A DNA stretch of 62,632 nucleotides, counting the filler, from Basidiobolus ranarum (Eukaryota), in the NCBI GenBank assembly GCA_040143965.1. It is 25 parts of 25 records of this genome, joined end to end, with 100 filler letters (N's around TTAATTAATTAA, not from the genome) between each part and the next. Parts side by side here need not be neighbours in the genome. Positions count along the whole stretch, not along the records: positions 5,042 to 7,459 come from JASJQH010003359.1; 24 more parts are not named here. One strand, written 5' to 3'. Below, piece by piece: positions 4,942 through 37,469 of the stretch. The first letter of the stretch is position 1. Every line of letters starts with the position of its first letter. The notes under the pieces are model-generated. The model was not told where the DNA came from, searched no databases, and saw only the letters and a program-made list of their open reading frames with translations. Position numbers and translations under genes: made by a program.

Positions 4942-5425
4942 NNNNNNNNNNNNNNNNNNNNNNNNNNNNNNNNNNNNNNNNNNNNTTAATTAATTAANNN
5001 NNNNNNNNNNNNNNNNNNNNNNNNNNNNNNNNNNNNNNNNNGCAAGATATCCGACATGCCACTTGGCTTTATGAGCATCTTATTCATGCTACTATTGTGT
5101 GTTTCCACTGCCATGGCTTATCATTGAGTTACATCGATGAGACAGAATCATCTGTTACCAGTATGATTCTCTTATGTCAGTATATTCATGTTTCTCGATG
5201 TTGCTACGCTCACTAAATATCAAACAAAAGATAGATTGAAATAAACTGTTGCTTAAAGCCATATATATTATTACAGTTTAAGAACATTTCACTTCTGCCA
5301 CAATGAATGCATACTTGGTTGATTTATAAATCTTAAAAATTCTTATCCCATTCTCTAGCTAACTTTAATACTTCACCTACAATTATGTGAATAGGCCAGA
5401 GCTTTTACAATTATATGCAACCTTT

Positions 5426-6220
5426 TGTAGAAATTAGCATTGCCTAAACACCTATATAGTCATATATAGCTTAGTACTTAGTTATCTTATAATTCACTAA
5501 GATATTATCCATTTTTCTCATAAGGAATTTACTTAGAATAATTTACCAACTTAGATTTAGAATTTACTTAGAAGTTATCAGATTTATAGATTTTGATAAC
5601 TTGTGCTAGAAGCCACAAACTTTGCACACATGTTTCTGAGACTTTCCTTAACATATTCTGCATGTTAGTTTGCTTGCATCTTGACAAAACTATGAATGTC
5701 AACTTTCTACTCAATAAATCAATAAGTGAAAACCACCAATTTCTCCGATTCTTCAAACCACTTCCAACAGGCTCCCAAATACTTTAACAGGTTATGTGCC
5801 ATGAGCTTGCACTCTCTGTAATGTCTACTTCTTAAACTTATGAAACATTTCCCTCTTCTGAAAAACTGGATGGAATTAATTATCAAGTTTAGAAAATTAA
5901 AATGAAAATGCTGCTGCAAGAAAAAGAACTTTGGGACACTCTTGTTGGAGAAGAAAACAATGCAAACTATCTGAAACCAAAGTTTTGCTCCAGGTTAAAA
6001 AAGAACCAAGTGCCTTTAAAACAATTTGTCTTAATGTTTAAGACAAGCTGCTAATTCAATGTTCAAGAGCTAAAACTGCCAAGAAGGTATGGAAAGCCTT
6101 TGAAGACACCTACCAAACAAGTTCTGCTGCCCACAAGATGTTTCTAAGAAGATAATTCTTTAACTTAAAGATGAAGCCTGGAGAAGACATTAAATCACTA
6201 ATTAATAGATTGGCAAATGT
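5426..6220 (+). mobile_element. Copia family A 5' LTR (5426-5789), PBS (5790-5800) and gag start (5821)
   Basis: TG..AAATTAG...TTTAACA LTR found in several copies; PBS GGTTATGTGCC; gag EKLDGINY..KIKMKMLLQEKELWD. Confidence 0.9.
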
Positions 6221-6261
6221 TGAGAATAATCTAAATCTGTTAAGAGTTTTCTTAACCATAT

Positions 6262-6543
6262 TGTTGAAAGTCTGGTGACTTGTGGTATAAGTGGTAATTC
6301 CTAAAGAGGAAAATACAGAGTATGGTGACTGCATCTGAACACAAAGTCTAAGGCCAATCAGTTGCTTGTATAGCTGAAATACCAAAGTGCCATACATTGA
6401 CAGACTAGGTTAAGGTTCCCTAGCAATATGGGCATAGCATACAAGGACTGGTAGCTCAGTGGTTAGAGCACCTTGCTAGAGTGAAGGTGGTCCCAGGTTC
6501 AAATCCTGGCCAGACCAATATTTCTCCCTGAAAAATTTCAATA
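6262..6543 (+). mobile_element. 282-bp solo LTR containing a tRNA-like gene (Helenus-like)
   Basis: Termini TGTTGAAA...TTTCAATA. 5-bp TSD CATAT at 6257-6261 and 6544-6548. The empty-site sequence TTAACCATATTGCTTCTTTT is seen at ~37031. A second copy lies at 7560-7670. Confidence 0.85.
6445..6517 (+). tRNA. tRNA-like sequence (pseudo-tRNA) inside the LTR; nominal anticodon AGA
   Basis: GGACTGG-TA-GCTC AGTGGTTA GAGC-A-CCTTG CTAGAGT GAAGG-TGGTC-CCAGG TTCAAAT CCTGG-CCAGACC-A. 73 nt with A box and B box; one mismatch each in the acceptor and anticodon stems. Confidence 0.8.
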
Positions 6544-7559
6544 CATATTGCTTCTTTTATTGCTTCACAGGCAGCCATATATTCTGCTTTTGTTGTTGAA
6601 AGTTCTACAGTAGGTTGTTTCTTTGAATTTCAATAATAGCTACATTATAGCAAAGTAATAAGTATCCTTTTGTAGATCTCCAGTCTTCAATATCTCTTCC
6701 CCAATTTGCATCCGAATATCTCATCAGATCAAAGTTTGATCCAGAATATGTGTATTTTAAGTGCAGATCCACAATTCCTTTCAAACATCTGAAAATCCAC
6801 TTAACTGCAATGATTTGATCAGATCCATAACTTTGAAGATATTAGCACATAACTCCCACAGAATATGTATATCTGGCCATGTTACAACCATAATATGCAT
6901 CAAGCTACCAACCATAGATTGATACAGAAATTTCTGGCTTTCATTGGAATCCAAGAATTTGAACCATTTATGGTCAAGTTAAGATTTGTCTCCATCAAGG
7001 TAGATACTGGATTACATGCTTCCATTTTAAGCTTCTTTAGCATATCTAGGATATACTTTGACTTACTAAAAGTTATTGATTTGGTAGTTCTATCTATCTT
7101 AATTTGAATTCCAAGATAGAATGTCAGTTCACCATGATCAGTCATTTTGAATTTGCAGATAAGCTGGATTTGGTTTTCTCCAAAGTCTTCAAGTCATTGG
7201 TTGCTATAATAGGTCATCTACATATAAGGCTAGTAAAATGGGTTTGTCTTATATAGCCTGAGGTTGTTACTATAGTCAGCATTACTCTTTTGGAATTTGA
7301 GTGTTTGCACAGAAGTGTCTATCTTGCTATTCAAAGCTCTTGCAGATTTTTATAAGCCATAGAGTTTGTTCCAGAGTCTGGAAGCATTTTTTGGGTTCTC
7401 TGAGTCCACAAAACCATCTGGCTGGTCCATATAGATCTTCTCAGCAAGCTCACCATTCANNNNNNNNNNNNNNNNNNNNNNNNNNNNNNNNNNNNNNNNN
7501 NNNTTAATTAATTAANNNNNNNNNNNNNNNNNNNNNNNNNNNNNNNNNNNNNNNNNNNN

Positions 7560-7670
7560 TATACAAGCAACTGATTGGCCTTAGACTTTGTGTTCAGATG
7601 CAGTCACCATACTCCATATTTTCCTCTTTTGGAATTACTGCTTGTACCACAAGTCACCAGACTTTCAACA
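7560..7670 (-). mobile_element. Second, contig-truncated copy of the tRNA-bearing LTR, inserted in the EnSpm-like transposase
   Basis: Reverse complement TGTTGAAAGTCTGGTGACTTGTGG...GTTGCTTGTATA matches 6262-6372. Confidence 0.85.
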
Positions 7671-9976
7671 GAGATACTTAATCTGTGTGCATGGCTTGGG
7701 CTTTGTTGCTGTTATTGCACTCAAACAATGCAAAAACCCATGAGAATTTTGAAAAGAGCCCTTTGTTGGAAGGTTAATATACTCTGGAGTCTTCTTAACC
7801 CATCGCATTATATCCAACACTAATTTTGCTGATACATTGTTAATTGGATTAGCATATGGTAATACTGATGGTTTCACACAGAACATCATTTCACTGAAGG
7901 TGTGCTTCATTGGTCACTCCTAGAATGTGTGACCAGGTCCTATAACTCTAAGCATTGTGAAAGATGCAGCAGGGAATGTGTTGAAAACCAGCATAGATTC
8001 AGTCTATCTTCTTTAAACCTGTAAAAAAGTTTTTATATCCAATTAAAAATCGTCTCACAGTTGCTCTATTGGCCTGAGATCTGCCAATGTGAGTTGATGT
8101 TGTAAGAATATATTAACAATATCAACAAACAACTCCCAATGTTGCCAATACTTAATGGGCTAAAATCTTTTCAAGACTTCACTTGAATATATACAAATTG
8201 AATACTTCCAGTCTTTGCATTTAAATAAACACCTAGATGAGTGGATATTGATGGGAGTCCTGGTAAAATATGATGATATCTTTGCTTTTTCAATCATTTT
8301 CCAAATCAACTCAAACTTTGATTGTATCTCAAATGGCTCATCCATATTGAATTTTCCACTATATAGTGGAGAAAGTAGTATTGGAATGTTTTTGACTAGT
8401 AAGTGCATAGTGCCTAATGGGAAGCTCTGGCTTGAGCTGATCCCCTTTGGCAATATAATTTTAGGCTTATGGCTAATACCAAGTTTGATGTTAGACCAAC
8501 TATTTGGTGAATTGATATCAGTTATCATGTTGAAATCTGGCTGTGCTCTTGATGGTAAAATCATGGAGCTTAGTGTTGTATTTGGATAGTAGTAATGTGT
8601 AGGCCTGATAGAGTAACCTCCTTTCATTTGACAAAATTTACAGCAAGATAGTGTATTGTGCCTGCAAGAACCTCTAAGTTTACTGATGGCAGGAGTGTCA
8701 CCAATACATACAATGATATTAGCTTTCATAGAATATTCACCCATCTGAACCCCATTGGATAACTGTTCTAACTCCACAATCAAAGGCTCCAAGTAGGTAT
8801 CTACAAGCACTTGTGATTTAGGTCCAGATATGATGGATAGTATCAAAATATTATGACTCTTGTACCATTCAGAAGGAGGAAGATTTAAGTTGATTAAAAT
8901 TATTGGCCATCAAGCCTTTCCAATGGTATATTTGTTTAGTAAGAAACCATCCAGAGCCAATGCAAATGCATGATCATATGTGTTCCCAAAGAAATCTTGA
9001 CTTCTCAAATTCTGGTAGTGATATCTGTCAAGTATATTGGTATTATGATTAGCTTTACAGTGAGTACTTTGGTATTGGATCAATGATTTACATTTAGGTG
9101 ATTTTATCAAAATTTTATGATGGGGAATCAACAGTGTGTAAGCCAAATATGAACTATATTTAACTGATTCAGTGAGTGCCAATTGGGTGCTAACAGTACA
9201 TGACTTCAGGTTTTTCAGATCATACGTTAAAGCCTAACAACCATTTTGGACATGAAGGTAGTTTAATTACTGAAGGATTAAAAGTCATACAATTGATAAG
9301 TGTTTTCCTATTGTACCAAGTCTGTGGCAAGCAATAGTTGCCAATCAACTGTGGTAAAAGTGTAAGAAAATCAATAAATATTTGGTTTCTAAGATTGGAT
9401 TGAACTCTCAACTCCTCAATAATCAAAGCTGCTTCCTTTACAGTAAGTGTTACCAGTGGACTAGTGTTTGCCAATAACACAGAGTCCCTAACAAAACCAT
9501 ATTCTTCTTCTTCAACTTCTGATATACTACCATTGGTACTGGAATAACCAAGGTCAACATGTAGCAGCAAGTCCTCAAAGTTGTCTGGACTTACTGGGTT
9601 GACCAAAGATGCACTTCTACCCACATCATTCTGGTCATATAATTGTGGTAACTTCATGGTATTTTGACTTTCGGCAGTGTTAGCAAAGCTTAGAGGCAAA
9701 GTACAATCAGTGGACTCAATGGGCAAAACCAAAATCAATTTAGTACACATATTACTGTTATAATACACCAGGCTTTGTACAGCTGGTGGCTTTGTAAAGT
9801 GACCATGCTTGTGATGATTTTTTTCATGAAGCCCCCAGCTTTAATAGCACAAGAATTTGTGACAATAATAACAGGGCTACTTAAAATATTTGTGAGGCGG
9901 CATAAGAAAGATATTGTTGAAAAAAATACACCACATATGTAAGGGTGGATTTGTAGGTATAGCCCATCAATATCAC
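7671..9976 (-). mobile_element. CMC/EnSpm (CACTA-like) transposase pseudogene
   Basis: NLPPSE.YK..NILILSIISGPK...DTYLEPLIVEL..L..GV...IGDTPAISKL.G..H....CKFC (Transposase_21-like); LPSCP; H.LLHL...GP....E.PM. Confidence 0.88.
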
Positions 9977-11517: not shown

Positions 11518-12491
11518 ATGACTACAGAAAGAAATGTCTTTTCCGATGTTTCACAAAAAGCAAAGAATGTTTTGTTTAAGGCCTTGCCTATTGCAAGCTG
11601 GCTTCCATATTACAACAAGAAGTGGCTTTTTGGTGACGCTCTTGCCGGCATTACTGTTGGTGTGATGGTGGTCCCTCAGGTAAGTAATACACTCGAATGT
11701 TCAATTCAAAACTTTGAGGTTAACCGGTTCTATTTCCTCAGGTACTGGCATATGCTCAAGTGGTTGGCCTTCCTGTTCAATATGGTCTTTACAGTGCTAC
11801 GTTTTGCGCCATGGTTTACTGTCTTTTCGGGACATCCAAAGACGTCAATGTTGGACCTATTACCATGCTTTCCATGCTGACTGGCCAAGTATGCAGTCAG
11901 ATGGTTGAGGAGTATGGCTATAGTAATGTTGATGTAGCTATTGCTCTGACTTTTATGACCGGCATCATTTTGTTAGCGTTGGGAATTTTGAGACTGGGCA
12001 TTGTTCTAGATTTCATCTCAGTGCCAGTTATTGTTGGATTTACCTCTGGCGCTGGTATTGCCATTATGACAACTCAGGTGTGTAAACAGATGTCTACTTT
12101 TTAGTGAAATAGTCTCATCTAATTTTCCATATCTTATCCAATGTAGATTCCTAATTTCATCGGTTTGAAAGGGATTAATACTCGGGAGTCTGCCATTAAG
12201 ATTGTTATTAACGTTTTTAAGCATATCGGAAATGCCACTTGGGTAGACGTTGTAATTGGAGTCAGCTCTATCCTCGTTCTCGTAAGTCTTGACCAGATCA
12301 AAAGGCGTTATGGTCGCAGACATTTCGCCATTGGATTCTTGGGGATTGCTAAGAATGCAATCACTATCATCATATTTACATTGGTCAGTTTCATCATCTT
12401 GAAGACCGCCCCAGACACCAAAATCAGCATCATCCGTGATGTCCCCCGTGGTATTGCACCTCCGCGTTTCCCCAACATTGATTTGACCATG
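11518..12491 (+). CDS. SulP/SLC26 sulfate permease, 5' part (exons 11518-11679, 11742-12077, 12147->contig end)
   Basis: LPIASWLPYY..KWLFGDALAGITVGVMVVPQ|VLAYAQVVGLPVQYGLYS...FGTSKDVNVGP...GILRLGIVLDFISVPVIVGFTSGA. GT-AG introns at 11680-11741 and 12078-12146 keep the frame. Confidence 0.95.
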
Positions 12492-17619: not shown

Positions 17620-18459
17620 CAAAGTGTAGAGAGTGCTTTCCTCTGCTTCTTTTGAAAGGCAAAGATAGCTTCTGGTGGTCCCTTTGGCTCTATTTCTTTT
17701 CCTGTAACAAATCCCCAAAGGTCCTTGTTTGCTAGCACCATTTGCATCTTGAACTTCCAAAGGTGAAAGTCTTCACCATCAAACTTCTCTGTGGATGCAA
17801 AAATGTAGGTAATAGTACTGGTAGACATTCTTTTAGCAGCTAGCTTGGGGCTCATAACCAGATAAAAGTGCTTAGGGAATTTGGAATTTTTTTGGACAAG
17901 ATTAGTATTTGTGAGTTAGACACTTATGTTTTATTGAATTGAATTTGTCCTATATATAGTTTACTATGAAATAGGACTTTTGGACATGCTTAGATCATAG
18001 CAAATGTGCTTGTTAAGTATAGCTGAAAATTTGATATGATTTGGAGAGGTTTTGAGAAAAAAGTGAAAATTAGTAAAAGTGATTGAATTGATATTTCTAT
18101 CAGATAGAGCAATAAACACACATTTCTGGATGACAGAATTGAGTCCAAGATAATCAGAATACAACTGAACTAACCACTAGGCATTAAGTTGCTATTTCCC
18201 TAATTTCAACATTCCCACACAACTAATTATATTGTATTTCTTCTAAACCTAACTTTTATAGTGATGATTCAAATTGTGCTTTAGCTAAAGGCTTGGTGAA
18301 GATATCAGCCGGCACTTCTTCAGTAGGGCAATAGACAAGTTCAAATATATCATTCTCTAATGCTTCTCTGATCAAATGATGCCTAATATCTCTATGTTTT
18401 GTTCTATCATGAAATATAGGGTTTTTAGCAAATGAAATACAACTATGATTATCTTCAAT
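17620..18459 (-). mobile_element. Copia family B: RNase H end, PPT, LTR (17860-18211), PBS and gag start
   Basis: Minus strand reads HDRTKHRDIRHH...ADIFTKPL, purine tract, TGTTGAAATTAGG LTR, PBS GGTTATGAGCCCC, then gag MSTSTITYIFASTEKFDGEDFHLWKFKMQMVL. Confidence 0.9.
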
Positions 18460-20032
18460 TATTGAAATTAGGTAAATAGCTACTCATCATTTAGTAGTTA
18501 GCTTATTCAAATTCTGATTATTTAGCACTCCATTCTGCCATTCAAAAACGTGTGTTTATTGCTCTAATTGATAGATATATCAATCAGATCACTTTTACCA
18601 ATTTTCACTATTTTCTCAAAACTTCTCCAAATCACCCTAAATTTTCACCCTTGCTTAATGGGCATGTTTTTATGATCTAAGCATGTCCAATAGTCCTATT
18701 TCATAGTAAACCATAAATAGTACATATTCAATTCAATAAAACCTAAGTGTCTCATTCAAAAATTCAAATTTTGTGCAAAATACTTTCAAGTGCTATGAGC
18801 ACTTTTATCAAATTATGAGCCACAAGCAAGAGGTGAAAGTAATGTCTACCAGTACTATTACCAATGTTTTTACATCCACAGAGAAGTTTGATGGTGAAGA
18901 CTTTCACCTTTGGAAGTTCAAGATGCAAATGGTGTGAGAAGACAATGACCTCTTGGGTTTTGTTACAGGAGAAGAAATAGAGCCAAAGGGACCACCATAA
19001 GCTATCCTTGCCTTTCACAATAAGCAAAGGAAAGGACTCTCTGTACTTTGTCTACATCTCAGAGATTTTCAATTGAGGCACATACAATCAGCCAAAAACA
19101 TCAAAAATGCTTGGGAAACACTTGAGCAACTATATGAGACTTGAAGCCTGGCTAATAGGCTATATCTTAGGCAAAAACCATTCTCAATTCTGATGAATCC
19201 TGATGATTCTATGCTTAATCATAAAATAAGATAAAAACTGTGGTAGATCAGCTCACCTCCATTGGAGCACCTCTAAATGAAGATGACTTAGTCATGACAC
19301 TACTTGGAAGCCTGCCAGACAAGTTTGGGAACCTCATAATTGCCCTAGCTTCAAGATCAGAACTATTAACAATGGAATATGTTGGTGCTAGGCTCTTGAA
19401 TAAAGAATTAAGGAGAGCTAATTCTCAGCAACTAATGCAGAACAGGCATCTTTTGGAGCTGTAAATTGCCCAACAGGCTTCAATAATGGTGCCCCTATTA
19501 GGAAATTAATCATCTGCAAGTATTGCAAGAAAGCAGGCAATTGTTTCAAAGAATGCAGAAAAAGGATTTTTGCCAAAATGCTAAAATTGGAATAAGCAAA
19601 TTGAGTAAGCACTGATAGAGATCATTTAGTTGTGTCTGTCTTGTTAGTAACCACTAAAGAAGACTCAGAAATGTGGTACATTGATTCAGGAGCTTTTCAG
19701 CATATATCAAACAGGAAAGATTGGTTTTCCAGCTTAAAACTAATCCAAACATGGAAAATCTACTCAGGTAATGACTTTGCACTAGATGCAGTTGGTAAGG
19801 GCACAGTTGTACTCAACTTAGACCAAAATTCAGCTACACCATCTGCAAAATTAGATGATGTACTCTATGTACCAAAGATAGCCAAGAACCTACTCTCAGT
19901 AAGCCAAGCAACAACTCAAGGATTAAATTTTGTGTTCAGCAAGGCTTGATGCACTATCACAGAGCAGAATAAATCCAAATTAGCCACTGAGATCAAAACT
20001 CATAACTTAAACAAGCTGAAAATCAACAAATT
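18460..20032 (+). mobile_element. Copia family B 5' LTR (18460-18810), PBS, gag and protease
   Basis: gag ATG at 18842; LLGSLPDKFGNLI; zinc knuckle CKYCKKAGNCFKEC; protease WYIDSGA; DVLYVPKIAKNLLSV. Confidence 0.92.
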
Positions 20033-24157: not shown

Positions 24158-25055
24158 TGTTGAAATTAGGTAAATAGCAACTCATTATTTAGTAGTTAGT
24201 TCATTCCTATTCTGATTATTTAGTACTCAATTCTGTCATTCAAAAATATGTATTTGTTGCTCTAATTGATAGAAATATCAATCAGATCACTTTTACCAAT
24301 TTTCACTATTTTCTCAAAACTTCTAAAAGAGTGAAATTCATCAAATTCATGTATTTGCTATGTTTTACCAACCAGAATAATAGAAACATATTCTTGAAGG
24401 TCTGAGCTGAGTGCCAAGTAATATGAATGTGAATACTTAAACTACAAAATCATTAGTTGTTAATTATCTACTCTCTTCAAGACATACCATGTTGAGCAAT
24501 AAAAACACCCTTTTGAATTTCAAAATTGAGCATGGGGTACAAGCCATTTGTTAGCTAAAAGCTTGGCAGAGATGTCAGTAAACCTGCCTTTAACAGGGCA
24601 ATTAACAAGTTCAACCATGCACTTACCAATGCTTTTCTAACAAAGCAGTAACATATATCTAAATGCTCTTTTCTGAGTATTTGCTATTTTTGTTGAAATT
24701 AGGTAAATAGCAACTCATTATTTAGTAGTTAGTTCATTCATATTCTGATTATTTAGCACTCAATTCTGTCATTCAAAAATGTGTGTTTATTGCTCTAAAT
24801 GATAGAAATATCAATTAGATCACTTTACCAATTTTCACTCTTTTCTCAAAACTTCTCCAAATCACCTCAAAATTTCACCCATGCTTAACAGGCATGTTTG
24901 TTATGATCTAAGCATGTCCAATAGTCTTATTTCATAGTAAACTATAAATAGGACATATTCAATTCGATAAAACTTAAGTGTCTAATTCACAAATCCAAAT
25001 CTTCTCCAAAACACTTGTAAATCCCCTAAACACTTTTATCAGGTTATGAGCCCCA
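24158..25055 (+). mobile_element. Copia family B LTRs (partial 24158-24323; complete 24690-25041) and PBS 25042-25055
   Basis: TGTTGAAATTAGGTAAATAGC...CACTTTTATCA followed by GGTTATGAGCCCCA. Confidence 0.9.
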
Positions 25056-25155: not shown

Positions 25156-27566
25156 ATTTCTTCACCTCACCACCCTGTCATCCTTGGTATCTCAAGGCTG
25201 ATGCAGCACAATCCAGTAATAAACTGGAAGAAGAAGATTATCATGTTCAAGCAAGCTGCACCTCCTAGTCCTATTTGCCTACCTACAAAGCATCCAACTC
25301 ACCATCAGCCCAATCCTCAAAGATCTATGAAGCCAATATCCATTGACAGTGTTGCTGAAGAGCTGAAACCAACAGAAACTATGGTTCATATGCTCCTACC
25401 CAACTATTTAGCCTCTGATGATGTCTCTGACCAGAAGAAATTTGTTATACTCTCAGCTCACTGCCCTTATGATTGCCCTATAGATCTACAAGAAGGAAGA
25501 CAACCACCATTTGGGCCTATCTACGGGCTGGCCTAGCCACAACTCAACATTCTGAAAATGTGTATTGCAGAAAATTTGGAGAAAGGGTTTATTCAACATT
25601 CAAAGTCTCCAGTAGGCTCTCCAATCTTATATGTTAAGAAAAAGGATGGATCTATCCATCTCTGTGTTAATTATTGAGGCCTCAATAGAATTACAGTCAA
25701 AAATTGGTTCCCCTTACCATTAATAAATTCACTCTTGGATCAGCTTGCTTCAGCCAAGATATTTACAAAGATTGATTTAAGAGGTGCTTACAATCTTGTA
25801 AAAGTCAAAGCAAGAGATAAATGGAAAACTGCCTTTCAAACTTGCTATGGACACTTTGAATGCAATGTCATGCCATTTGGACTTACCAATGTCCCTGCAG
25901 TCTTTAAGCACATGATTAATGATATCTTCAGAGAGTATCTTGACCAGTTTGTAGTAATCTACCTGGAAGATATGTTGGTCTTCTCAAGCTCTCAAGAAGT
26001 ACATAATATTCATGTTTTGAAGTCCTAGAAAACTTGAAAACCTCTGGTCTTGATGCTAAACTTGAGACATGTAAGTTTGACCAAGCTCAAGTTGAATTCC
26101 TTGGAAATAACATTTGCCCATCAGGCTTCTCCATGGACCCTAAGAAGGTTGTGTCTGTTTGGTCTTGGGATATTGCTAAGAGTGTGAGGGATGTCCAATC
26201 CTTCCTGGTATTTGCAAACTTTAACCAATGGTTTGTTAAGATTTACTCCAAAATAGCTGCTGCATTAACAAACCTTACCAAGAAAGAAGTCCTATTTGAC
26301 TGGAACTCATCTTGCCAACACACATTTGTAAGTTTAAAGAATGCTTTTGTCTCAACACCAATCCTGGCACACCCCAAGCTAGACAAGCCATTTATTGTTG
26401 AAACAGATGCATCCAACTTTGCTCTAGGAGCAGTACTATCACAGTAAGGTGGTGACAACTTACTGCACCCTGTTGCCTTTTACTCAAGAGAGTTCTCTGC
26501 TTCAGAAATCAACTATGACATCTATGACAAGGAATTATTAGTAATTATTGGTGCAGTTGAACAATGGCAACAATACTTGGATGGTGAAAATCACACAATC
26601 ACAATCTATTGTGAACATAAGAATCTTCAGTATTTTAGTACAATCAAAGTTCTCAACTGCTGTCAAGCAAGATGGTCATTATTTCTTGCCATTTTTGATA
26701 TTATGATTACATGTCAACCAGGTAGCCTGCAGGGAAAACCTGATGCCTTATCATGTAGAGCTGAATATCAGGCTAAAGAAGGGGATGAGGCTGCAGGCCA
26801 ACAAAATACTTCCTTGCTGAAGCCCCACCAACTTCAAATTAGGACAACTGCTCTTTCTCTGCCCAGTAGAAGCATATTTCAAGAAGACATCTGCAAACTT
26901 TGGTATGAAGACCCATTGGTAATATCAATCAAGAAAACCAGGATACACCCAAAGGTCTCTCAAGCTTGGACTTGTACCCCCATTTCTCTATCATCCATGA
27001 TCTCTTGCTTTAAAGGAGCACCCTTACATTCCAGACCACACTTCCAGACTCAAAATCATGCTGGAAAGACATGACTCACCACTTGCAGGATACTGTGGTA
27101 TTGCTAAATCTTATATGTTGGCATCCAGGGATTATTGGTGGCCATAAATGTTTGCATTTGTCAAGACTTATGTTTCCACCTGTGATGCTTGTGCTTGAGT
27201 GAAGACACCAATATGTTAGCCCTATGGCCTCCTACTCCCACTTCCTATTCCTGATCAGCTGTGGGAATCCATGTCCCTCTATTTCATAACTGATCTACCC
27301 TTGTCTGTTAAATATGATTCAATTCTAGTAATTGTTGACCATCTAACAAATATGGCCCACTTTGTGCCCTGTAACAAGTCAATTGATGCAAAACAAACAG
27401 CAGAATTGGTAACTCAAAATATTTTCTGCCTTCACAAACTCCCTAAAACTATCATCTCTGACCAAGGACCTCAGTTTGCTGCCAAATTTTGTAAAGTCTT
27501 CTCCAAACCTTGAGGGTCTCTGGCAATCTCTCCACTGCTTTCCCTCGCCAATGTGATGGCCAAACA
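25156..27566 (+). mobile_element. Ty3/gypsy (Tf1/Tf2-like) pol pseudogene: RT, RNase H, integrase
   Basis: [38 protein letters not shown] (decayed YLDD); ETDASNFALGAVLSQ; NYDIYDKELL; SLYFITDLP; IISDQGPQF. RT-RH-IN order. Confidence 0.95.
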
Positions 27567-30176: not shown

Positions 30177-30503
30177 AAGAAGTCCAAAATCAACGTTGAA
30201 TACATTCACATCTCTGCTCTTCTTGGTTTCGTCGAATCAACTTTGATTTGGGCCGTCACTACCCTGAAGCTCGAGAGAGAACATGAACTAAGAGTTATCT
30301 TAGCATTCAACAAGGTTCTTTGGTTACAAAATGATTTCTTTGCAAAGTACTATGCTAAGGATGGCTCTGATGTACCCAACTCTTTTGGCTTACACGCTCA
30401 TCCAATCAAATCTTCTAAATTTAACCTCGACAGTGCTATGATTGGTGGCGCCATGGCTGTTGTTATAGTATTGCTTGTGCAAAAATTTTTAGCTTTGTAT
30501 TGA
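30177..30503 (+). CDS. Fungal protoglobin-domain protein, C-terminal part with hydrophobic tail
   Basis: Frame open from the contig start: INVEYIHISALLGFVE...AFNKVLWLQNDFFAKYY, a motif I recognise from fungal protoglobin-family proteins. C-terminus AMIGGAMAVVIVLLVQKFLALY. Confidence 0.75.
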   Translation, partial: KKSKINVEYIHISALLGFVESTLIWAVTTLKLEREHELRVILAFNKVLWLQNDFFAKYYAKDGSDVPNSFGLHAHPIKSSKFNLDSAMIGGAMAVVIVLLVQKFLALY

Positions 30504-36387: not shown

Positions 36388-37469
36388 TTTTAAAGTATTT
36401 GAGAGCCTGCTGGAAGTGGTTTGGAGAATTAAAGAAATTGATGGTTTTCACTTATTGCTTTATTGAGTAGAAAGTTGACATTTATTGTTTTGTCAAGATA
36501 TAAACAAACTAACATGTAGAAAGTGTTATAGAAGGTCTCAAGAACATGTGTAGATAGTTTGGGGCTTCTAGCATAGGTTTGAAAAATCTATATATCTGAG
36601 AACTTCTAAGTTGTTAAAAATATTCCAAGTAAATACCAAATGAGGATAATGGACAATATCTTAGTGAAATAAAAAATAACTAAGTACCAGGCTATATATG
36701 ACTATATAGGTGTTTAGGCAATGCTAATTTCAACACTATCCCTCACCTGAATAGTCATATAAACCAATTGTAAGGAAAGACTAAAGTTCTAAAATTCCTG
36801 TCTAGCTAATGGTTTGGTTAATATATAAGCAATCATGTCTTCTTTAGAACAATAAGTTAAGTCAATGGACTTATTTTCTATAGTCCCTTTTTTGAAGTGA
36901 TGCTTGATATCAATATGTTTGCTTCTATTGTGAAATGTAGGAGTTATAGCTAATTTGATACAACTTTGATTATCTTGAAATATTGCAGTTGGTAAATTTT
37001 TGGAATAACCTAAATCTATTAAAAGCTTTGTTAACCATATTGCTTCTTTTGCTGATTCATAGTCAGCCATGTATTCAGCTTGTGTTGTTGAAAGTGCTAC
37101 AGCAGGTTGTTTCTTTGAGTTCCAAGAAATTGCTCCATTACAGCAATGTAAAAAGTATCCTGTTGTAGATCTCCTGTCTTCGACATCTGTTCCCCAATTT
37201 GAATCTGAATATCCCATCAGATCAAAGTTTGATCCAGAATATGTCTATTTTAAACATATATCCACAGTACCTTTCAAATATCTGAAAATCCACTTAACTG
37301 CTATGATGTGCTCAGATCCATAATTTTCAGGATATTGGTACATAACTCTCACAAAATATGCAATATCTGGCCATGTTCCAACCACGATATACATCAAACT
37401 ACCAAGCATAGATTGATAAGGAAATTTCTGGCTTGCATTTGAATCCAAAAATGTCTGATTTGAGCCATT
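36388..37469 (-). mobile_element. Copia family A 3' portion: RT end, RNase H, PPT and 3' LTR (36388-36735)
   Basis: GYSDSNWGTDVEDRRSTTGY; SKKQPAVALSTTQAEY; FHNRSKHIDIKHHF; LTR terminus TTTCAACA at 36735. Confidence 0.93.

Follow-up and report, generated by a model that had tools for sequence, protein, structure and literature searches.

Cassandra, a plant TRIM, carries 5S rRNA in its LTRs. Helenus (TRIMp3) elements are likewise TRIMs, less than 1000 bp long and non-coding, with tRNA-derived sequence in their two LTRs and a short interior bounded by a PBS and a PPT (Kojima 2024, PMC10886601). Among fungi, Helenus is listed for rust fungi and a few Agaricomycetes only: 113 families have been described in the Pucciniales, together with Agaricus, Coprinopsis and Amylostereum, and the fungal elements are characterized by 5-bp duplications, links to copia elements and frequent solo LTRs (PMC10886601). 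[quoted passage not shown] In the genomes of rust fungi, Helenus accounts for many tRNAscan calls in which anticodon and tRNA body conflict, with a large excess of tRNA-Ser-AGA (PMC10886601). Insertion of a SINE has been proposed as the origin of tRNA-bearing LTRs, and it has been argued that the autonomous partners of these elements should not themselves bear such tRNA-like LTRs (Kojima 2024, PMC10886601).

We describe here a 282-bp insert in Basidiobolus ranarum which is almost certainly a solo LTR from a family integrated by copia, with a tRNA-derived unit inside the LTR. The kind of element, a tRNA-bearing LTR, was already published in 2024 (PMC10886601), and the Basidiobolus case is probably an extension to a new fungal phylum. 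Basidiobolus and Zoopagomycota have 0 occurrences in that publication, and Basidiobolus is absent from its Table 1. Since the published screen was seeded from Repbase and then extended to relatives of the seed hosts, absence of Basidiobolus from the list is no evidence of absence (PMC10886601). Our own full-text literature search, which returned mostly listings and the opening parts of abstracts, contained no report of tRNA-bearing LTR elements in Basidiobolus.

The window, by which we mean the whole 62,632-bp stretch of DNA that was analyzed, is composed of 25 pieces (2421 down to 2399 bp), which are contigs from a single fragmented assembly, sorted by size and with spacers between them. These spacers contain 48 runs of N44, paired around TTAATTAATTAA (N44-TTAATTAATTAA-N44; for example at 2422-2521, 4942-5041 and 7460-7559), and distance or neighborhood across them is meaningless. 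The tRNA-bearing insert sits on piece 3 (5042-7459). The proposal of an earlier note on this DNA that the host is an early-diverging fungus is borne out by host gene fragments, which identify Basidiobolus ranarum. A sulfate permease gene with an intron (11724-12491, plus strand) has an exon on piece 5 (11724-12101) that is 99% identical to a partial B. ranarum protein, with the next 4 matches also from Basidiobolus. A globin-sensor (protoglobin) gene fragment on piece 13 (30177-30500, plus strand) shares 95% identity with a B. ranarum protein and 83% with one from B. meristosporus, the best 7 of 17 matches being from Basidiobolus. Pieces 13 and 3 have transposon repeats in common, at 81-84% identity. 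As piece 13 combines these repeats with a host gene, the transposon-rich contigs come from the same fungus.

The insert lies within a degenerate copia pol sequence, and a related sequence lacking the insert is found elsewhere in the window. The features of the insertion and its target are:

6211-7459, minus strand: decayed copia pol (end of the reverse transcriptase, and RNase H), the target of the LTR, with stops and frameshifts in its translations
6257-6261, no strand: target-site duplication CATAT, left copy, 5 bp
6262-6543, nominally plus strand, taking the tRNA-like part as sense: solo LTR, 282 bp, TGTTGAAA...TTTCAATA
6544-6548, no strand: target-site duplication CATAT, right copy, 5 bp
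36989-37194, minus strand: paralogous empty site in a copia RNase H with intact frame, with a single CATAT at 37036-37040

After in silico deletion of the insert together with one CATAT, piece 3 aligns without gaps over the junction to 36989-37194 on piece 15. Homology to piece 15 begins at about 6210, about 51-52 bp to the left of the insertion, and to the right of the insert the two sequences share 85.9% identity across 417 bp. What the insert interrupts is the C-terminal portion of a minus-strand copia pol, in which Pfam RVT_2 ends at 6903-7193. More than 1200 copia pol proteins match the intact paralogous ORF (36792-37244), with identities of 37-58% among the 120 matches listed, nearly all of which carry PF07727; searches of PDB and Pfam with the RNase H ORF gave no match. 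A 282-bp insert splitting a copia RNase H with a CATAT duplication is thus confirmed as earlier described. The empty site that had been placed near 37031 also exists, on a separate contig, and is not a neighbor of the insert: because the window is made of separate contigs, it is a paralogue elsewhere, neither an allele nor adjacent sequence. At about 6211, a plus-strand copia gag fragment is abruptly joined to the minus-strand copia RNase H fragment; a nested insertion, a deletion or a join made in assembly may be the cause.

The ends of the insert read TG...TA, one transition away from the canonical TG...CA, and in its terminal inverted repeat, TGTTGAAA/TATTGAAA, 7 of 8 positions agree. Of the TG..CA ends assumed in the earlier note, the TG start is present, whilst the 3' end is TA. 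The insert has no internal terminal direct repeats, just two repeats of chance size (11-12 nt), and so is not a miniature two-LTR element. As expected of a solo LTR, it stands alone between the two copies of a duplication whose length is that produced by an integrase, and an empty site exists elsewhere. The solo-LTR type of insertion that had been proposed is accordingly upheld by the 5-bp duplication, the TG...TA ends, the inverted repeat and the precision of the empty site.

Within the LTR is a tRNA-like unit, with the following features in and downstream of it:

6445-6517, plus strand: tRNA-like cloverleaf of 73 nt with an AGA anticodon and a short variable arm (ARAGORN, Rfam and folding)
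6452-6462, plus strand: A box, TAGCTCAGTGG, which fits TRGCY...YGG, Kojima's Helenus pattern
6496-6506, plus strand: B box, GGTTCAAATCC, which includes the GGTTC conserved in Helenus
6555-6558, plus strand: first T4 run 3' of the unit, where Pol III might terminate on the solo copy

Across the whole 62,632-bp window ARAGORN reports one gene only, tRNA-Ser(aga) at 6445-6517. The same unit scores 57.7 bits against Rfam RF00005 (gathering score 29; E 7.5e-10) and is the only one above the gathering score among the 7 Rfam matches listed. It occupies positions 184-256 of the 282-bp LTR. The cloverleaf with A and B boxes, ending 26 bp before the end of the LTR, that the earlier note had recognized is confirmed. 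The tRNA ancestry proposed for the unit rests on the covariance-model score, its thermodynamic fold being unremarkable by itself (z-score -1.06). Serine tRNAs have a long variable arm. The unit combines an AGA anticodon with a short variable region, and so is not a normal tRNA-Ser. Infernal additionally identifies two stem mismatches, a single one in each of the acceptor and anticodon stems. The unit therefore has neither the long variable arm nor the intact stems of a functional tRNA-Ser, and its description as an abnormal tRNA, with AGA on a short-variable-arm body and mismatched stems, holds in full (Infernal, ARAGORN). There are no runs of T4 or longer inside the LTR. We considered this as a sign of Pol III read-through and rejected it as not significant, since T4 is also missing from 351 of 2128 (16%) background 282-bp windows and from 36.6% of shuffled sequences.

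Set against the described systems, the insert most resembles Helenus. It has the defining tRNA-derived LTR sequence with box A and box B motifs, the 5-bp duplication typical of the fungal elements, the solo-LTR state and co-residence with copia. The resemblance to the Helenus elements of rust fungi extends to the Ser-AGA pseudo-tRNA call, with anticodon and body at odds. Indeed, the LTR has every Helenus characteristic that is readable from a solo LTR. It differs in its host, Basidiobolus (Zoopagomycota), and the comparison is one between a published description and an insert known from a solo LTR and a 111-bp fragment. Cassandra is similar in having a small Pol III gene embedded in the LTR, but that gene is 5S, whereas the insert has no 5S match in Rfam at E values up to 10 and only tRNA rises above threshold. 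Like tRNA-derived SINEs (SINE2), the insert is a short repeat bearing a Pol III promoter that derives from a tRNA. Those elements, however, have a 5' tRNA head, a 3' tail and duplications of variable length, whilst in the insert the tRNA-like part does not begin until position 184 of the 282, the ends are TG...TA, the duplication has a fixed length of 5 bp and there is no tail.

A BLAST comparison of the insert with the window returned, besides the insert itself, one significant match among the 18 matches listed. This second copy and the paralogue of its flank are located at:

7560-7670, minus strand: second LTR copy, positions 1-111 only, 94.6% identity, ending at the end of contig 4
23797-23949, plus strand: empty-site paralogue for the flank of the second copy, 82.4% identity, on piece 10

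The second copy starts at exactly the same base as the 282-bp LTR and differs from it at six positions (5 transitions and 1 transversion), all within the first 58 bases. Similarity between its flank and the paralogue extends up to 1 base or less from the LTR boundary, beyond which the paralogue is unrelated sequence. A second copy with the same 5' start and its own empty-site paralogue indicates two independent insertions with a common 5' boundary. This bears out the suggestion that the LTR belongs to a repeated family, with the second copy stopping before the tRNA-like part. In wider searches a 23-mer and a 25-mer from the LTR had 0 matches in viral_contigs and genome_contigs. A 20-mer matched 4 loci in metagenome_contigs, which we ascribe to chance because the match is confined to the 20 bases in all 4. 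The 49-aa antisense frame of the LTR, searched against 1.84 billion representative proteins, gave one match, to an unrelated tandem-repeat protein.

Two families of copia LTRs are recognizable in the same window:

24691-25053 (LTR 24691-25041), plus strand: copia LTR family 1, TGTTGAAATTAGG...CTTTTATCA, followed by the PBS GGTTATGAGCCC
18211-17848 (LTR 18211-17860), minus strand: second copy of family 1 with the PBS GGTTATGAGCCC, followed by copia gag, on piece 8
5426-5801, plus strand: copia LTR family 2, TGTAGAAATTAGC...CTTTAACA, with the PBS-like sequence GGTTATGTGCCA
36748-~36388 (LTR 36735-~36388), minus strand: 3' LTR counterpart of family 2, with a polypurine tract

The family 2 LTR at 5426-5789 is followed by the PBS-like site at 5790-5801 and then by gag to about 6211. 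At both family 1 sites GGTTATGAGCCC lies directly 3' of the copia LTR, and family 1 copia is a candidate autonomous partner of the tRNA-bearing LTR. There are 19 occurrences of the octamer TGTTGAAA in the window, 6 of them at recognizable LTR starts, and the octamer is common to three LTR families, the tRNA-bearing LTR included. The idea that the termini of the insert are the same as those of local copia elements is thus correct for this 5' octamer. It fails for the other end, where the copia LTRs finish in CTTTTATCA and CTTTAACA rather than TTTCAACA, although the 3' ends are similarly T/A/C-rich. The local Ty1/copia LTRs differ from the insert in having no tRNA-like unit (Rfam), and beyond the termini there is no similarity between them and the tRNA-bearing LTR (scores of 9 and 10 versus shuffle means of 10.5 and 10.3). 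A local copia without LTR similarity to the insert is in keeping with the relationship of Helenus to its partner as published (PMC10886601). The ends of the insert are near-palindromic, and either orientation matches the local copia ends equally (8-9/10 at the 5' end and 5-8/10 at the 3' end). An attempt to derive the polarity of the insert from its terminal likeness to local copia LTRs consequently ended in a tie, and the tRNA-like part may lie either in sense, 26 bp from the end of U5, or in antisense within U3. At 17848-18860 a nested or rearranged insertion is present, in which a 240-bp fragment separates two copia 5' ends (LTR-PBS-gag) in head-to-head arrangement, one having the PBS GGTTATGAGCCC and the other a decayed AATTATGAGCCA.

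The best single reading of these observations, to which we assign an even chance by analogy with described elements, is that the family is a Helenus-type, Pol III-driven TRIM. [quoted passage not shown] Members of the family would bear, within the LTR, a tRNA-derived unit whose internal Pol III promoter boxes are intact, the architecture of Helenus. The full element would, by analogy, be short and non-coding, with the organization LTR-PBS-PPT-LTR. It would be transcribed by Pol III from the tRNA-like unit, and then copied and integrated in trans by resident copia gag-pol. The solo copy is itself immobile and would at most form a small Pol III unit of ~110 nt, reaching to the T run at 6555, whose transcript would be antisense to the copia RNase H. 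The insertion with its duplication and ends, the tRNA-like structure, the second copy and the host are observed, whereas we infer the TRIM nature, polarity, Pol III activity and partner of the element. We give even odds to the possibility that the family is a TRIMp3 lineage of independent origin in an early-diverging fungus.

Several other explanations have to be weighed against a Helenus-type TRIM. One that is possible, though on the unlikely side, is that the insert represents an LTR from an autonomous copia or from a large non-TRIM derivative, with a tRNA or SINE segment as a passenger. Such an element would be driven by Pol II, leaving the boxes idle in transposition, and the segment may even be antisense within U3. 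The solo-LTR features are equally compatible with a passenger of this kind. The length of the insert, 282 bp, is near that of the local autonomous copia LTRs (~350-365 bp), and its ends fit the local copia ends equally in both orientations. It has also been noted that several Repbase LTRs are similar to tRNAs and that only some of these belong to TRIMs (Kojima 2024, PMC10886601). Against this, Helenus TRIMs are described as having just such a complete cloverleaf with an intact A box and B box (PMC10886601), and no copia 5' end visible in the window uses the tRNA-bearing LTR. Furthermore, the second copy has not retained the TATA-like motif seen at LTR positions 25-30.

We think it improbable that the insert is the LTR of an autonomous Basidiobolus copia with a complete, promoter-intact tRNA-like Pol III gene in each LTR. 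If it were, this would be a dual Pol II / Pol III LTR that spreads small tRNA-like transcription units genome-wide. The published argument that autonomous partners should lack tRNA-like LTRs, cited above, runs counter to such an arrangement.

It is also unlikely that the tRNA-like segment is private to one copy, having entered an already integrated solo LTR as a tRNA retro-copy or a tRNA-derived SINE. The second copy would permit this, as it stops at LTR position 111, short of the tRNA-like part. In a search for a duplication bracketing the segment, we found just a 6-bp direct repeat, CAATAT, at 6424 and 6516. However, we estimate that chance would yield ~0.6 6-mer repeats of this sort in the space searched, and an A-rich or simple-repeat tail is absent directly after the unit.

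An origin outside the LTR retrotransposons altogether appears very unlikely. The terminal inverted repeat and small size of the insert could suggest a small non-autonomous DNA transposon, with 8-bp terminal inverted repeats, 5-bp duplications and chance tRNA-like cargo. Yet the octamer that makes up the repeat is the 5' end of at least 2 bona fide copia LTR families, each LTR being followed by a PBS and one of them by gag, and a 5-bp duplication is the copia length (PMC10886601). Finally, a working tRNA gene that has merely been carried along or targeted can be dismissed almost completely, since the high Rfam score in its favor is set against an AGA anticodon lacking the serine-type long variable arm, mismatches in the acceptor and anticodon stems, and the position of the unit strictly within the mobile insert.

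If the Helenus-type family is confirmed, tRNA-type Pol III LTR elements would reach from the Pucciniales and a few Agaricomycetes to the Zoopagomycota, giving support to repeated independent origins of tRNA-bearing LTR elements. Confirmation would also call for caution in annotation, as tRNA-Ser(AGA) calls in Basidiobolus genomes could then be carried by transposons, and would provide a culturable fungus for work on Pol III-driven LTR retrotransposition. The single solo LTR has no evident effect on its host.

Other elements and genes are present in the remaining contigs. The contig that holds the second LTR copy also contains a CACTA/En-Spm-type transposase fragment (8160-8909, minus strand; Pfam Transposase_21, E 2e-15), with paralogues of this transposase in pieces 2 and 16. 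A Ty3/gypsy pol fragment with RVT_1, RT_RNaseH and rve is found on piece 11 (25678-27510, plus strand). The whole of the contig at 42717-45121 (plus strand) is a single open frame that encodes a non-ribosomal peptide synthetase fragment with condensation, adenylation and N-methyltransferase domains, and its GC content is 43%, compared with ~35% in the transposon contigs.
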